Shown one piece after another: positions 3,397 to 54,316 of a DNA stretch of 64,000 bases (the first letter of the stretch is position 1; each line of letters begins with the position of its first letter). The position numbers and the translations under genes are program-made. Under the pieces are notes generated by a model. It did no database searches. It was not told the DNA's origin and saw only the letters and a program-made list of their open reading frames with translations. This DNA is from an uncultured delta proteobacterium (lineage in GTDB: Bacteria; Desulfobacterota; Desulfobaccia; Desulfobaccales; 0-14-0-80-60-11): positions 1,289 through 65,288 of the forward strand of contig CAWCKU010000027.1 in the NCBI GenBank assembly GCA_963796215.1. The letters are read 5' to 3'.

Positions 3397-4340
3397 CGTC
3401 GCCTCCTTGTGCATCGGCCTCGCCGACACCGCCTCGGCCGGCGTAGAAGGTCATGAACACGTCCTCGAGGTCCGGCAGCCGGCTGGTGAGGTCGAGCACG
3501 GGGAACTCGCCCAGCTTCTTCACGGCGGCGTCGAGCGAGCCGGTGACCGTCAGTCGCAGAACATTGGCGCCCTTGCCGTTCACGGCCACGTTGGTGACCC
3601 CGGGGACAGCCTCGAACGCGGAGGGCGGGACGGGCTGGGCGAACACGACCTCGATCTCACGGACGGCGCGGCCGGTGAGGTCGGAAACGTCCTCGAGCGC
3701 GATCAGCGCCCCTCGCGGATGAAGGCGACGCGGTCGCAGACGCGCTGCACCTCGGGGAGCACGTGCGACGACAGGAAGACCGTCTGCCCGGCGTCGCGCG
3801 CCCCGTCGACGAGCGCGTAGAACTCGTGCTGCACGAGCGGGTCGAGGCCCGAGGTGGGCTCATCGAGGATGAGCAGCTCGGGCCGGTGCATGAAGGCCTG
3901 GACGAGGCCGAGCTTGCGCTTGTTGCCGGTCGAGAGGTCGGCCACCTTTCTGCCCAGGTCGCAGTCGAGGCGGTCGCAGAGCTCGGTCACGCGGTCCCAG
4001 TCGGCGCCGCCGCGCAGGTTGGCGAGGTAGCGCAGCGTCTCGCGCCCGGTGAGGTTGGGGTACAGGCTGAGCTCACCGGGCAGGTAGCCGCTGCGCGCCT
4101 GGATGGCGAGCGTGTCGCGGTGGCTGTCGCGGCCGAGGACCAGCGCGCGACCGGCCGTGGGCCTGATGAGGTCGAGCAGCAGACGGATCGTGGTCGTCTT
4201 GCCGGCCCCGTTGGGGCCCAGGAAGCCGAACACCTCGCCCGTCCGCACCTCGAGGTCGAGTCGACGATCCCGCGGCTCTTGCCGTAGGTCTTGGTCAGCT
4301 GCTCGGTCTGTGAGCGCAGGATCGCCCGGCCGCCGCTCAT
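3386..4340 (-). CDS. ABC transporter ATP-binding protein (DrrA-like), frame broken
   Basis: Walker A GPNGAGKTT, signature LSTGNKRKL, Walker B LLILDEPTSGLD, H-loop SSH. N-terminus MSGGRAILRSQTEQLTKTYG lies in another frame. ATGA overlap with the TetR stop. Confidence 0.75.
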
Positions 4341-47238: not shown

Positions 47239-47460
47239 TTAAAAAATCGCCTCGTTTTTCAGCATGATACCATAACCATCGCCATCTTTGCTCTTCTGAC
47301 TGCGATAGCGGGGGGTGGTGTCGTAGTCGCTCCAGCCTTCGGCGCTGTCAACGCGGAGCCGCTGCACTCCGCCGTCAGCATTCGATTTTTCATAGAGGAC
47401 ACCGGAGCAGCCCACCACAAAGAAGAGCCCGGCCATTGTTAGGGCTAACAATTTGTTCAT
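47239..47460 (-). CDS. small lipoprotein, paralogue of 48436..48648
   Basis: [18 protein letters not shown] lipobox. [15 protein letters not shown]...W, ends MLKNEAIF. Confidence 0.55.
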
Positions 47461-47463
47461 TAA

Positions 47464-48318
47464 GTGCTTATCCGTAAATAATCCAACTTTTCGCCAGCAG
47501 ATTATGGCTGCTGCTAAATGGATCAAGGCGATATAACTGGAAAGGGTTTTTTCATAACGAACCAAGATTTTGCGAAACCTATTAAGCCATGAATGGCAGA
47601 CTTCTACGATCCATCGGCGTGCACGGTAGCCGGGAACAGTTTTTTTCGCCTCGATTTCCTCGCCGCGGCGCCGTACATGGGGGATATAGTCCCGGTCGAC
47701 TATGCTTTGGTATGCAGGTTTACCGTCATAGCCTTTGTCGGCGCAAAGATGTTGAAGCTTGTCTGCCGCTGGCTCTGGTCGCTTAATGACAATGTTATCC
47801 AATACGGCTTCCAGTTGAGTTACATCATGCCTATTAGCCCCGGTTACGACGATCGACAGAGGGACGCCAAGCTCGTCTACCAGCAAATGGCGTTTGCTTC
47901 CTTTTTTTCCCCCTGTCCGTCGGGCTCGGACCAACCGCCTCCTGAGCTAAAGGGGCTTTGGTCATGGCACTATCAAGACTCTGCCATAACCAGGAGATGC
48001 CCTCCATTTCATCATATTCCGCCAACCGGCTCGCCACATGGCCAGAAATACCCCGGCCTTTTCCCACTGGCGAAAGTAGGCATGGACGGAACTGGGGCTA
48101 CCATATACCTCTTTGGGGAGAGCCTTCCATTGGCAGCCGGTGCGGAGAACATAAACAATACCTTCAAAGACCTTGCGATAATCCAACGGCTTTCTGCCAC
48201 CGCCCTTTTTCCGGATATAAGATTTGTTTGGGTCCCTGGTCGGTGGCGGCAAGAGAGGCTCCACTCGCTGCCAAAAAGCATCGGAAACAGCCCATGATGG
48301 CAACCTTGGCATGCGCAC
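47464..48318 (-). CDS. IS5-family DDE transposase, two frame breaks (TT near 48030 and T7/A7 run 47902-47908); stop not resolved
   Basis: DUF4096-like N-terminus VSDAFWQRVEPLLPP...VFEGIVYVLRTGCQWKALP. Middle LAEYDEMEGISWLWQSLDSAMTKAPL. DDE part LLVDELGVPLSIVVTGANRHD...CADKGYD...RWIVEVCHSWLNRFR. Confidence 0.8.
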
Positions 48319-50167: not shown

Positions 50168-51722
50168 CTATAACTTCACCGGCTTCTCTTTGGAGCGCGG
50201 GCCCATCTCCTGCAAAAAGTGCAGCCGGTTCAAGCCATTGATGTAGGCCCGGGCGCTGGCGGTGACCACGTCGGGGTCCACCCCCTGGCCGGTGACCACG
50301 TGGCCGTCTTCCTCCAACCGGACCGACACCTCGCCCAGGGCCTCGGTGCCCCCGGTGATGGAACTCACCGCGAATTTCAGCAGGCGGCACTTCGACCTGG
50401 CCAGGTCGGTAATGGCGCGAAAAGCCGCGTCAATGGGGCCGTCACCAAAGGTCGACAGGGTCTTGACCTCCCCGCCCACCTCCAATCTCACGGTGGCCGA
50501 GGGCTTGACCGTGGTGCCGGTGAGGACCACCAGTTCAATCAGCCGGAAGTGCTCGGGCACCGACTTATAGATGGATTCGGTCTCCACCAGGCTTATAAGG
50601 TCTTCGTCGAAGACCTTCTTCTTCAGGTCGGCCAGTTCCTTAAACCGTTCTAAAAACCCGGATCAACTCCTCATCCGAGAGGTAGTAGCCCATCTCCTGG
50701 AGCTTGTTTTTGAAGGCGTGGCGCCCGGAAAGTTTCCCCAGCACCAGGAGGCTCTTTTTGATGCCCACCGTGGTGGGGGTCATGATTTCGAAGGTGCTGG
50801 CCTCCTTCAGCATCCCGTCCTGGTGAATGCCGGACTCATGGGCAAAGGCATTGGCCCCGACGATGGCCTTATTGGGCTGCACCGGCACGCCCGACAGCTT
50901 GCTGACCAGACGGCTGGCCGGATAGATATACTGGGTGACAATATCCGTGTGATAGTGCAACAGGTCTTTCCGGGTGGCCAGGGCCATGACCACTTCCTCC
51001 ACGGAGGCGTTACCGGCCCGTTCGCCCAGGCCATTGATGGTCACTTCCGCCTGGCCGGCCCCGTTCATGATGGCCGCCAGGGTGTTGGCCACCGCCAGGC
51101 CCAGGTCGTTGTGGCAGTGCACGGAGATCACCGCCTTGTGGATATTGGGGATGTGTTCCGTCAGGTACTTGATCATGGCGCCGAACTCGTGGGGAATGGC
51201 GTAGCCCACCGTGTCCGGGAAATTCACCGTGGTGGCCCCGGCCTCAATGACCGCCGTGAACACCTGGGCCACGTAAGCCAGGTCACTGCGGGAGGCGTCC
51301 ATGGCGGAGAATTCCACGTTGGAGGTGTAGCGGGTAGCATGTTTCACCGCAGCCACGGCCATCTCCAAGACCTCATCCCGCCCTTTGCGCATCTGGTGCT
51401 GCAGATGGATGTCCGAGGTGGAGATGAAGGTATGGATACGGGGATTAGTGGCCTCCTTGACCGCCTCCCAGCAAGCGTCGATGTCTTTCTCGAAAGCCCG
51501 GGCGAGACCGGCGACTTGAGGGCCGCGAATCTCCCGGGCCACCGCCTGCACCGCGGCAAAATCACCGGGGGAGGAGAAGGGAAAACCGGCTTCGATGATG
51601 TCCACGTTGAGGAGTTCCAGATGCCGGGCAATCTGCAGTTTTTCATCGACGTTGAGATTGGCCCCGGGGGTCTGCTCCCCATCCCGCAGGGTGGTGTCAA
51701 AAATATAGATTTTCTTAGACAT
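50168..51722 (-). CDS. leuA: 2-isopropylmalate synthase, one frame break near 50630
   Basis: AAGGAGAG then ATG 51722. [36 protein letters not shown]. LeuA dimerisation/regulatory C-terminus in ORF 50168..50587. Confidence 0.9.
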
Positions 51723-51846
51723 TAGGCTCTCCTTTCCCAAAAGGACTCCAGGGAAAGCAATGGTATTATACCACTGTCTCCACGAAAAAGAAGCAGTTAA
51801 AACTATACTTTGCCGGAATTGTTAGGAAGAATAAATAGATGCCTGC

Positions 51847-51915
51847 CTAGGCAGGCAGCAGCGGCCGCAAGGCTAGGCCCAGAAGGGGAAGACGGTGAGG
51901 TTGGAAATAATTCAT
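51847..51915 (-). promoter_or_regulatory. candidate leucine leader peptide (22 codons, 7 Leu) with the stop codon inside a GC hairpin
   Basis: MNYFQPHRLPLLGLALRPLLPA*. The TAG lies in the loop of TGCCTGC-CTAG-GCAGGCA (51840-51857), followed on the minus strand by ATCTATTTATTCTTCC. 125 nt upstream of the leuA ATG. Confidence 0.45.
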
Positions 51916-51944
51916 GTGACTGCCTGACCATCAAGGGATGTATT

Positions 51945-51974
51945 ATTATATCCAAACCGAAATTGAAAAAACAA
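51945..51974 (-). promoter_or_regulatory. candidate promoter TTGTTT-18-TATAAT upstream of the leader ORF
   Basis: -10 at 51945-51950 and -35 at 51969-51974 (minus strand). Confidence 0.4.
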
Positions 51975-52038
51975 GGGCAAAATGCAGGCCTGATTTTTTC
52001 CAACCATGGGGGCCTGCTTCCAGGCAGAGTTTGGCTGC

Positions 52039-53149
52039 TTAATAGCTCTTAAAACGGCGGGCTATCTGGTCACTCAGGCATTGCGCCACCACGGTGTTAC
52101 CTAACGCCGTCCAATGCCCGTCGCCAACAAAATAAAGCTGGTCGAGCCGCTCTGCAGAAGCAGCCAGAGCAGGGGTCAAAGGGAAGATCATTTCCCCATG
52201 ATTTTTGGCAATCTCCGTCAGAGCCGTTTCATCATGGGAAATCTGGCGGTTATTTCGGTAGGCTTCTACTTCCGCAGACACGGGGACATAAACAATCATT
52301 AATGAACCTCCAGCCCCGTTTACCAATTTTTTAATATGTTTGATAAAGATATCCGTTAGTCTCTTATTTTCATCATTAGCATAGCCTTACTGATATACCG
52401 GATAAGTTATAATTAATCCGCCTTCTTTAAGCGCCGTGGGATTGGTATTTCTATAAAACCACTTAATACCTGCTTCCTTAATAAGATTAGCTGTTTGAGA
52501 CCATGAAACCAACCAATTATAGCCGGGTAGATACCAAAGTGCAGTCTTAATAAGTCCTCTACTATTTTGCAAAGCTTTAGGGAAAATTTCTCCAGCCGGA
52601 GAAATTGAAAAATATTCGCCTCGCTCATTATCGATAAAATCATTGGCGGCAAAACAAAGAACGGTTAAATCAGGCTTGAATTTATATCCCAGAACCTGGA
52701 AGAATTTCAACTCGTAATCGGTCCCCTTGCCGCTAACCCCCTGCATTTATGACCTCGGCGGAAAGATGATCTGCCAATAAATGTCTTTCAGTTAGATAAG
52801 GAAAGGTCTGGTCGTCATTCACTCCGAAGCCGTAAGTAAAAGAATCGCCCAAAAACAAGAGGCGATGCTCCGTCCGTCTCTCATAACTGTATTCTTTACT
52901 GCCACGGGACCCCAAAGAATTGTGGCTATAGGTATGATCGAACAAACCGGGCCTAATTTTCCGGCCTTTCTGATCGGGCGTGGGAATATCACCCAATTGG
53001 GGATCAAACCTAAACCGAATGGGGGCCACCTCTTGTGGGTCAATGAACCGCACGGCCACTTCAGTAACTCCAAAGGCAAAGGTCAAACTGATAACCAGGC
53101 AGACGATTATTAAAACGGTATTTCTCATCCTCCTCCCCGCTAGTGCCAT
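52039..53149 (-). pseudogene. SGNH/GDSL hydrolase paralogue, low GC, with one G-run frameshift (about 52740) and one in-frame TAA (52387-52389)
   Basis: ORFs 52733..53149, 52387..52746 and 52039..52326 align colinearly with 53192..54316: LLFLGDSFTYGFGV, VINAG, GKGTDYELKFF, LPGYNWLVSWSQTANL, VYVPVSAEVEAYR, GDGHW. Confidence 0.55.
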
Positions 53150-53191: not shown

Positions 53192-54316
53192 CTAAGGCTT
53201 GTCGCTCCGGGACCTACGTTTTGCCTGTAGTTGGCTGGCAATATAATCCCCCAAATATCTCCCGACCTGTAAATGAGCCCGGGGAGTCCAATGACCTTCG
53301 GCGTAATACAGCTCCCGGATGGGCACCGGGGCAGAGGCCAAAGGCGGCGTTAGGGACTTGAGCGTACCCCCCCGGGCCTCGATGATCTCCTTAAGGGCCT
53401 GTTCGTCCCTGGAGATTTCCTGCTTCCGGCGATAGGTCTCCACTTCCGAGGCCAGGGGAATATAGACGACCAGCAGCTCGCTGCCTGCTTGTTTTACGGC
53501 TTCCCTTAAATGATCCAGATAGATTGCGGTGAGCTTCCGGTTGGTTTCATTGGAGTAGCCGAGGCCATCATAGCCTGTCTCATAGGAGACCACTAGCCCG
53601 GAAGCCGCGCCTACCTGCCCTTTCCGGCCTTTGCCGGCCTGTACCAGATAATCCACCGCGGCCTGTTTGACCAGGTTGGCCGCCTGGGACCAAGAGATCA
53701 GCCAATTATAACCGGGAAGATGCAAAAGAAAAGTCTTAATGGACCCCCGATTGCCGTCCAGGGACTTAGCTCGCAGCCCGCCGCCAGCATCGACATCATA
53801 ATACTCCCCCCGGGCGTTGTCTTGGAAGTCATTGGAGAAGAAACAGAGGACCGTCACCTCGGGCTTTAACCCAGCCCCAACGGTCTGGAATAACTTCAAT
53901 TCGTAATCGGTGCCTTTGCCGGGATTGCCCGCATTAATAACTTCGGCGGGCAGGTACCGTTCCCCCAGTTCCCGCTCCAGCTCCGCGGCGAAGGTCTGGT
54001 CGTCGTCCACCCCAAGTCCGTAGGTAAAGGAATCGCCCAGCAAAAGGACGCGAACAGCCGCTTGCTTCTCGAGGCTAACCTCCCGGCTGCCCCGGAAGCC
54101 CAGGGAGTTGTTGCTGTAAGTGAAATCGTAGCCTCCGGGGTGTCGCTGACGACCTTTTTGCAAAGGCACCGGAATTTCCCCCAGTTCCGGGTCAGAGGCG
54201 AAGCGCGGCGGTCCGGTCTCCTGGGGGTTGACGATCCGGACGGCGATTTCGGCCAGGCCATAGGCCACGCTGAAGCCGATGATTACAGCAATCAAGCGAA
54301 ATAGAAGATTTTTCAC
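53192..54316 (-). CDS. membrane-anchored SGNH/GDSL hydrolase
   Basis: TM segment LLFRLIAVIIGFSVAYGL. Block I LLLGDSFTYGLGV, block III INAG, GKGTDYELKLF, block V AEGHW. Confidence 0.7.
   Translation of the reverse strand: MKNLLFRLIAVIIGFSVAYGLAEIAVRIVNPQETGPPRFASDPELGEIPVPLQKGRQRHPGGYDFTYSNNSLGFRGSREVSLEKQAAVRVLLLGDSFTYGLGVDDDQTFAAELERELGERYLPAEVINAGNPGKGTDYELKLFQTVGAGLKPEVTVLCFFSNDFQDNARGEYYDVDAGGGLRAKSLDGNRGSIKTFLLHLPGYNWLISWSQAANLVKQAAVDYLVQAGKGRKGQVGAASGLVVSYETGYDGLGYSNETNRKLTAIYLDHLREAVKQAGSELLVVYIPLASEVETYRRKQEISRDEQALKEIIEARGGTLKSLTPPLASAPVPIRELYYAEGHWTPRAHLQVGRYLGDYIASQLQAKRRSRSDKP

Follow-up and report, generated by a model that had tools for sequence, protein, structure and literature searches.

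Upstream of leuA, the gene for 2-isopropylmalate synthase, in a 64,000-nucleotide stretch of DNA from an uncultured delta proteobacterium of the Desulfobaccales (contig CAWCKU010000027.1; the whole stretch is called the window here), lies a leader which, judged from its sequence, very probably encodes a leucine-sensing leader peptide that controls the gene. Leader and leuA (51722-50640, ATG 51722-51720) are both on the minus strand, as are all the leader elements described below. A promoter, P1, can be read directly (-35 TTGTTT at 51974-51969, an 18-nt spacer, -10 TATAAT at 51950-51945) and is followed by a listed upstream open reading frame (uORF; 51915-51847) that runs from an ATG at 51915-51913 through 22 codons, MNYFQPHRLPLLGLALRPLLPA, to a TAG stop at 51849-51847. 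Seven of the 22 codons specify Leu (CTT twice, CTG three times, CTA and TTG once each), and the Leu-rich part covers 51891-51856. The stop codon sits in the CUAG loop of a hairpin, H1, formed by UGCCUGC (51857-51851) and GCAGGCA (51846-51840) and followed by the tail TCTATTTATTCTTCC. The original prediction for this locus, which read the arrangement as leuL-type attenuation, had described the promoter, the 22-codon frame with its seven Leu, a 7-bp GC hairpin with the TAG in its loop and a GCCTAG motif inside the uORF, and each of these is found in place on the minus strand.

Taken alone, the window is unconvincing, because the minimum free energy (MFE) of the whole leader does not go beyond that of shuffled sequences (z -0.9 and -0.35) and a scan for terminator patterns flags one site, H1, where 0.8 are expected. 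The evidence that carries the case comes from relatives. A LeuA query returned 80 loci, about 60 of them from Desulfobaccales or Desulfobacca metagenome-assembled genomes (MAGs) at 76-92% identity and the remainder from Syntrophorhabdaceae, Syntrophus and similar organisms at about 66%; the closest match, at 99% identity, is a 'Deltaproteobacteria' MAG from Lac Pavin (L001). The 53 leaders with a corresponding uORF come from about 40 of the roughly 60 Desulfobaccales genome loci and from 17 metagenome contigs fetched by the 18-mer of H1. The uORF is 22-44 codons long, mostly 25, and lies 100-130 nt 5' of leuA. A TTGnnT-N17/18-TATAAT arrangement is aligned 5' of the uORF in the related leaders, and the host uses sigma-70 consensus promoters. 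The element is specific to leuA upstream regions and brings its own promoter.

Leu is enriched in these frames well beyond composition. At least four Leu in a seven-residue window occur in the best upstream ORF of 42 of 81 loci, compared with 3.8% of shuffles and 2 of 81 reverse complements. Counted back from the stop, 45 of the 48 unique uORFs have Leu at codon -4 (CTG in 18, TTG in 19, CTA in 4, TTA in 3 and CTT in 1), and Leu also occupies codon -7 in 38, -3 in 35, -5 in 31 and -9 in 28; up to five synonymous Leu codons are used per position. The N-terminal half of the peptide is variable, and the last eight codons are mostly Leu, in four sequence classes that end in ...QGLALL[L/R]LLPA* (class 1, which includes the window), ...LSLALLLAC* (class 2), ...LRLPAQ* or LLLPAL* (class 3) and ...GLLLAGA* (class 4). 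The frame is preserved through insertions and deletions, as where four leaders (L024, L025, L026 and L038) have gained three bases before the stop. Away from leuA, the 18-mer of H1 turns up at about 25 unrelated metagenome sites, all of them lacking a Leu run, and every site adjacent to leuA has one. Since Leu is kept at the amino-acid level while its codons turn over synonymously, there is strong evidence in these alignments that the leader is translated and that the identity 'Leu codon' is under selection. The loss of the uORF or of its Leu enrichment in relatives was what the original prediction had named as its refutation; both are clearly conserved. In one class 2 leader (L040) the ATG frame is one base off the Leu frame (LSLVLLLAC*), through either an assembly error or decay of the leader.

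The hairpin around the stop codon is conserved with the frame. In the window H1 has a predicted stability of -13.0 kcal/mol (z -2.55), and when leaders are folded one by one a hairpin with the stop codon inside its loop is found in 40 of 42 unique leaders and in all four classes, with a mean z of -2.6 relative to dinucleotide shuffles. The arms form 17 distinct pairs (among them UGCCUGC:GCAGGCA, GCCUGCU:AGCAGGC, GCCUGCUC:GAGCAGGC and GCCGGCGC:GCGUCGGC), with two to four standard pair types at each stem position. The enclosed stop may be UAG, UAA or UGA; in Desulfobacca acetoxidans (L047) and in L049 the frame runs through the hairpin and stops just beyond it. Folding was done per sequence because the hairpins lie in different registers across the classes, and RNAalifold on MAFFT alignments, whether these covered the entire leader or only H1 from the different classes, recovered almost nothing.

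Could the conservation reflect RNA structure alone, with the uORF a chance frame in an untranslated riboswitch or T-box-like element? The 3' end of the uORF does double as an arm of a conserved hairpin, and a GUGGUA downstream resembles the UGGN motif of T-boxes. However, the synonymous turnover of Leu codons extends outside the stem, and ATG and frame are kept despite indels. The middle G of the putative motif varies (UGG becomes UGU or UGA in many leaders), which rules out T-box-like tRNA pairing. In Rfam, the window has no match that reaches gathering score; within 51500-52300 nothing of relevance appears even at E<=10, and 34 related loci contain no T-box or other family, in agreement with the original view that the leader is not a T-box. 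We regard the chance-frame explanation as very improbable.

What, then, is the function of H1? In the trpL leader of enterobacteria the 1:2 hairpin has regulatory codons at its 5' arm and a stop codon between its arms. The Leu codons here likewise lie 5' of and within the 5' arm, with the stop in the loop, and H1 is therefore read as a trpL-like 1:2 element, a pause and a signal for 'no stalled ribosome', whose 3' arm is the mobile segment. The classical alternative is that H1 is itself an intrinsic terminator and that termination is blocked when stalling on the Leu codons places a ribosome over the 5' arm. With a loose rule (at least five T in 8 nt, beginning 0-2 nt past the stem), H1 and its tail qualify in the window and in 31 of the 53 leaders, and H1 is the sole recurrent terminator-like site between uORF and leuA. 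Three leaders (L030, L098 and L008) have stems of 9-10 bp with AUCUUUUCUC-type tails, and one strong terminator elsewhere in the window has a comparably mixed tail, ATCTTTCCTC. Yet no leader of classes 2-4 passes the rule, a canonical intrinsic terminator (a GC stem directly followed by a U tract) does not recur between uORF and leuA among the 53 leaders, and an A-rich spacer of 3-9 nt usually separates the H1 stem from the U-rich run. The clear terminators elsewhere in the window have stems of 9-14 bp followed by T6-T8.

The geometry also fits a terminator poorly. Reasoning from standard values for the ribosome footprint and for the spacing between RNA polymerase and ribosome, a ribosome trailing the polymerase in Leu-replete cells would cover the 5' arm as well, and one held up at the first Leu codons (-9 and -7) would leave it free, so that H1 as a terminator would either fail to discriminate or have the wrong regulatory sign. 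A stop codon in the loop fits a 1:2 hairpin of trpL and not the 3:4 hairpin. The GCCUAG:CUAGGC antiterminator put forward in the original prediction would be covered by the ribosome during a stall at the Leu run, and could not be the structure that stalling induces. Of the leuL-type attenuation proposed there, a conserved Leu-codon leader in front of leuA is supported; H1 as its terminator and GCCUAG as the antiterminator are not. We consider terminator attenuation at H1 unlikely, and H1 as a weak terminator after all is equally unlikely as the output of a real Leu sensor. A Y-shaped terminator (a base stem followed by U5), seen in class 4, was discarded, as it had no counterpart in leaders of classes 1, 2 and 3 folded in the same manner.

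Between H1 and leuA the leader carries further conserved modules. H1 is followed by a CU-rich, G-poor linker, UCUAUUUAUUCUUCCUAACAAUUCC (51839-51815), which from its composition is a candidate anti-Shine-Dalgarno (anti-SD) or Rho-loading tract. Next comes a block defined in the leader alignment, GGCAAAGUAUAGUUUUAACUGCUUCUUUUU (51814-51785), nearly invariant among class 1 leaders with diverged uORF N-termini and linkers, and the most conserved part of the leader. A second small ORF in this block (GKDIVLTASF) was discarded, its frame and stops not being kept (the window and L005 differ). The block holds the 5' arm of a predicted hairpin, H3, in which CUGCUUC (51796-51790) pairs with GGAGACAG (51781-51774) around a loop with a U-run. 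It is followed by an extended -10-like box, TGgTATAAT (51773-51765), which may be a second promoter, P2, or may cause a sigma-dependent pause. In the MFE fold the box is part of hairpin H4 (CAGUGGUA / UAA / UACCAUUG; 51776-51758). Finally, H5 pairs CUUUCCC (51757-51751) with GGGAAAG (51738-51732), overlapping the SD AAGGAG (51734-51729) of leuA.

Linker, H3 and box are all conserved in classes 1, 2 and 4 although their sequences differ. In these classes the tract of about 31 nt from 8 nt past the uORF stop to the H3 window, which takes in the linker and the first part of the conserved block, has 28-40% C and 6-18% G. H3 takes the forms CUGCUUC:GAAGCAG, GGCUGUGAC:GUCACGGUC and CGGGCUG:CAGCCCG, with stabilities of -8 to -18 kcal/mol, and the 3' arm of H4 varies by G-U-compatible or compensating changes. 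Owing to G-U pairs and A-to-G substitutions opposite U, the sense strand folds more stably than the antisense strand in 30 of 36 cases for H3 and 27 of 36 for H4. This argues for the region being read as RNA too, with P1 transcripts running through it. Neither H3 nor H4 serves as an intrinsic terminator, since a U tract is not conserved. SD-proximal hairpins recur with other sequences in other subgroups (CCUUUU:AGGAGG or CUUCCCC:GGGGAG), and in silico the SD is sequestered in the predicted H5 helix, with an unpaired probability of 0.22 in the window and a mean of 0.15. The CTTTCCC...GGGAAAG pairing that could mask the leuA SD, raised earlier as a caveat, is seen both in the sequence and in the fold, and the caveat proved important.

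Several leaders carry insertions of 100-230 nt between leader and leuA (L030/L123, L031, L033, L034, L041, L042, L087, L098 and L119). They consist of hairpin repeats rich in GC, such as ggggcgcacccgtgtgtgcccc and gggcggacacgcgggtccgccc, resembling small mobile or repetitive extragenic palindromic (REP)-like elements, and they lodge in loops, either within H5 or in the interval from H3 to the TATAAT box, leaving the conserved modules intact.

The box, which had likewise been mentioned as a caveat, is almost invariant across classes. TGNTATA[ATG]T is found 3' of the uORF in 47 of 53 leaders, 69-77 nt past the uORF stop where no insertion intervenes, and varies only at N and at hexamer position 5, as expected of an extended -10 and not of a hairpin loop or a T-box UGGN. 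Lying 45 nt before leuA, it probably gives leucine-independent basal transcription. It is possible to go further and to see two largely separate units, with leuA transcribed mainly from P2 (TGnTATAAT) and the upstream block serving as an UP element or regulator site, while P1, uORF and H1 yield a short leader RNA or peptide that has little effect on leuA or acts in trans. In favour of this, the box is conserved exactly as an extended -10 would be, a GTGACA -35 lies 17 nt upstream of it in classes 2 and 4, the box stays beside leuA when insertions part it from the upstream block (L030 and L098), and the block GGCAAAGATATTGTTTTAAC is by resemblance a putative UP element. Against this separation, the spacing from uORF stop to box is fixed in all classes, H3 and H4 overlap the putative promoter yet are sense-strand RNA hairpins, and a putative P2 transcript of the L005 subgroup would have its SD completely masked. 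Selection for Leu codons beside a Leu-biosynthesis gene is also hard to explain otherwise. Transcription of leuA mainly from P2 therefore seems rather improbable, as does a P1 unit of little consequence for the gene.

If the leader is a Leu sensor coupled to leuA, how could stalling be transmitted to a gene more than 100 nt away? P1 transcripts would carry the uORF of 22-25 codons, with its mostly-Leu last eight codons, ending inside H1. When charged tRNA-Leu is scarce, the ribosome would stall on Leu codons just 5' of or within the 5' arm of H1, preventing H1 from forming and leaving its 3' arm (GGCAGGCA) free; when Leu is plentiful, the ribosome would arrive at the stop in the loop and depart, and H1 would re-form. 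The free 3' arm could then re-pair downstream, in class 1 best with UGCCAUUGCCUU, just past the TATAAT box. That segment supplies both H4 with its 3' arm and H5 with its 5', anti-SD arm, so the pairing would unmask the SD: the pyrimidine strand would be pulled from H5, and expression of leuA from P1 transcripts would rise. The segment past the box (UGCC-AU-UGCCUU) is the best partner of the free 3' arm in 22 of 29 unique class 1 leaders, with a class mean of -10.6 kcal/mol (z -1.2), and the L005 subgroup combines the tightest masking of the SD (unpaired probability 0.01) with the strongest 3'-arm pairing (-12.6 kcal/mol, z about -2).

A number of observations count against this scheme and against leader control in general. 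The same pairing in the window itself reaches -8.1 kcal/mol (z -0.3), and it is not found in classes 2-4. In equilibrium folding with the footprint of a stalled ribosome masked, the SD stays paired (0.15 unpaired, mean change +0.02), with no stall-dependent opening at equilibrium. A second route, a trp-like 2:3 pairing between the 3' arm of H1 and the 5' arm of H3, can be drawn in classes 1, 2 and 4 (AGGCAG:CUGCUU, GCAGC:GCUGU and CGGCCC:GGGCUG), and is no better than cross-class or shuffled controls. A third, a covarying sequestor formed by linker and SD region, gives about -13 kcal/mol, and own, foreign and shuffled partners bind equally, so the complementarity is purely compositional. Leaders within one class are closely related, so that the counts given above do not represent independent events. 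The leuA of the window carries a frameshift. Furthermore, if P2 is a strong promoter, control of P1 transcripts may account for a minor share of leuA expression. Given a real Leu sensor, SD unmasking remains a plausible output, one that we would sooner doubt than accept, and no specific output step is held more firmly than this.

Alternatively, the output could be Rho-dependent attenuation of the kind described for tnaC and mgtL. Once the uORF is finished and H1 and H3 have formed, a CU-rich tract of about 30-45 nt would load Rho and halt P1 transcripts; under stalling, the freed 3' arm of H1 would pair with the 5' arm of H3 and enclose the tract. This model accords with the lack of a conserved intrinsic terminator, with the C-rich, G-poor composition and conserved length (about 31 nt) of the tract in classes 1, 2 and 4, and with the capacity for 2:3 pairing in the same classes, and Rho has been proposed for terminator-less leader peptides of Actinobacteria (PMC1262725). 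However, that pairing is, as stated, not above its controls, the tract is short for a rut site, and dependence on Rho is purely a prediction. The model as a whole is unlikely, and termination by Rho on the CU-rich tract is also an unlikely output for a real sensor. What likelihood is left falls to other outputs, including the -10-like box acting as a sigma-dependent pause. These estimates are conditional on the sensor being real where they concern its output, and those for the rival explanations each stand alone and are not meant to be summed.

The Leu-codon sensor is well supported. The leaders show the uORF and selection on its Leu codons, the stop codon enclosed by the loop of H1, hairpins H3 and H4 on the sense strand, and the -10-like box; stalling, the direction of regulation and the entire output step are what we infer. 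A tentative possibility is an output without a terminator, in which a trpL-like 1:2 hairpin reports stalling and the decision is made 70-110 nt downstream through sense-strand hairpins around the extended -10. That element might act as a sigma-70-dependent pause or an embedded promoter, and the CU-rich tract might be exposed as an anti-SD or Rho site, or both might occur; this too we put forward tentatively.

The leader is set among genes for branched-chain amino acid synthesis. In the window, ilvB-ilvN-ilvC-psd-pssA is followed by an SGNH-like gene and its degraded copy, then by the leader, leuA and leuC, an order known from Geobacter. An intact SGNH/GDSL-like gene (53192-54316) is followed by fragments at 53149-52733, 52746-52387 and 52326-52039 (all minus strand), which by their sequence resemble parts of the same protein and so appear to be a degraded tandem duplicate just 5' of P1. 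One inserted nucleotide near 50649 (TTTTTAGAACGG, where the 99% identical L001 has TTTTTAGACGG) breaks the leuA frame. LeuA of L001 has 517 amino acids, and in the window it is split into a catalytic part of 360 amino acids (51722-50640) and an ORF of 139 amino acids (50587-50168) corresponding to the C-terminal, Leu-feedback domain; the insertion may be genuine or may have arisen in assembly. About 400 nt past leuC, where leuD would be expected, lie two adjacent ORFs (47239-48318, minus strand; 118 and 231 amino acids), presumably the halves of an IS5-family transposase, with no obvious leuD-like ORF between. At the other end of the cluster, a strong canonical terminator, AGGCAGGGCCGCAAGCGGCCCTGTTTTTTTT (59545-59520, minus strand), and a promoter, TTGACA-17-TAATAT (59470-59442), precede an ORF of 92 amino acids (59436-59158) whose stop overlaps the start of ilvB; no leader peptide rich in Ile, Leu and Val precedes ilvB in the window.

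How does the leader relate to known systems? Literature searches turned up no description of a Leu leader for Desulfobacca, Desulfobaccales or Deltaproteobacteria. The leuL leader of E. coli and Salmonella (Rfam Leu_leader, RF00512) and trpL share with it a short uORF with cognate codons and a dedicated promoter. In contrast to leuL, its Leu codons are interrupted (LALLRLLPA) and form no strict run, and there is no homology in sequence or structure, with no Rfam match even at E<=10. Nor is there the canonical 3:4 terminator with its U tract found in leuL and trpL, and a conserved insert of about 75 nt, with two hairpins and the -10-like box, separates sensor and gene. In ermC, cat, tnaC and mgtL, likewise, a ribosome stalled in a short uORF rearranges the RNA so that an SD becomes accessible or a Rho site is concealed, and no intrinsic terminator is needed; drugs, Trp or Pro are sensed there, the sequences are unrelated, and for the Desulfobaccales leader SD unmasking or Rho dependence is a prediction only.

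The actinobacterial LEU element 5' of leuA also has a Leu-rich uORF and no obvious terminator, and its mechanism is unresolved (Seliverstov et al., 2005, PMC1262725). Both leaders involve the SD in base pairing. In the LEU element, however, the Leu-codon run itself pairs with the SD in a pseudoknot, whereas the SD partners here are pyrimidine tracts 3' of the uORF; a duplex between Leu run and SD gives -13.7 kcal/mol, no better than the -14.4 kcal/mol of a shuffled run.

Closer in phylogeny, the leuA leader of Geobacter is a T-box (PMC2700814). It serves the same gene in the same ilvBNC-psd-pssA-leuA neighbourhood of a related phylum, and the charging of tRNA-Leu would be sensed in both cases, by direct binding of uncharged tRNA in Geobacter but through translation in the Desulfobaccales, where the UGGN-like motif is not conserved. 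Within the phylum, a Thermodesulfobacteriota MAG with a LeuA 67% identical (L069) has a Leu-rich uORF, MIRGFKTTLTLLLLGLLARRRGGM, directly 5' of leuA. At about 3820-4000 of that locus, where leuA begins at 4001, the uORF is followed by AAAGCCCCGCCG-acaaac-CGGCGGGGCUUU and by UUUUAUUU, and its stop lies upstream of a 13-bp GC stem and UUUUUAUUU, a textbook layout of uORF and terminator that is absent from the Desulfobaccales leaders. Leader-peptide control of leuA therefore exists in the phylum. Fourteen loci have no leader, namely 13 whose LeuA begins MA(H/N)K(V/I)FIFDT and L028, with leuA 60-100 nt past the SGNH-like gene; at a few other loci leuA directly follows pssA. In Syntrophorhabdaceae loci, apparent 'MELLLKK' uORFs proved to be the C-terminus of the upstream gene and not leaders. 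With a T-box in Geobacter, a classical attenuator in L069, leaderless loci in some Desulfobaccales and the Desulfobaccales leader in others, regulation of leuA has been re-invented or remodelled repeatedly in this region of the tree.

The Desulfobaccales leader is most probably a ribosome-mediated Leu leader that forms a new family and a functional analogue of enterobacterial leuL: a family without homology to those known, a regulator of a known kind, and an unusual expression platform. Leader-peptide attenuation is a textbook matter in enterobacteria and poorly charted beyond a few phyla, to which a family from the Desulfobaccales (Thermodesulfobacteriota) that is absent from Rfam is added here; its uORF of 25 codons and hairpin could be used as a covariance model for annotating MAGs of the order. 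With no canonical terminator and with a -10-like box embedded in RNA hairpins, the leader offers a test case for how a stalling signal is used without intrinsic termination. If the non-terminator output is true, it would represent a class of attenuator that lacks an intrinsic terminator and has a promoter-like element within its expression platform. Together with its relatives it provides a clear case of regulatory turnover, in which the same gene in the same conserved neighbourhood has come under different control in neighbouring lineages.

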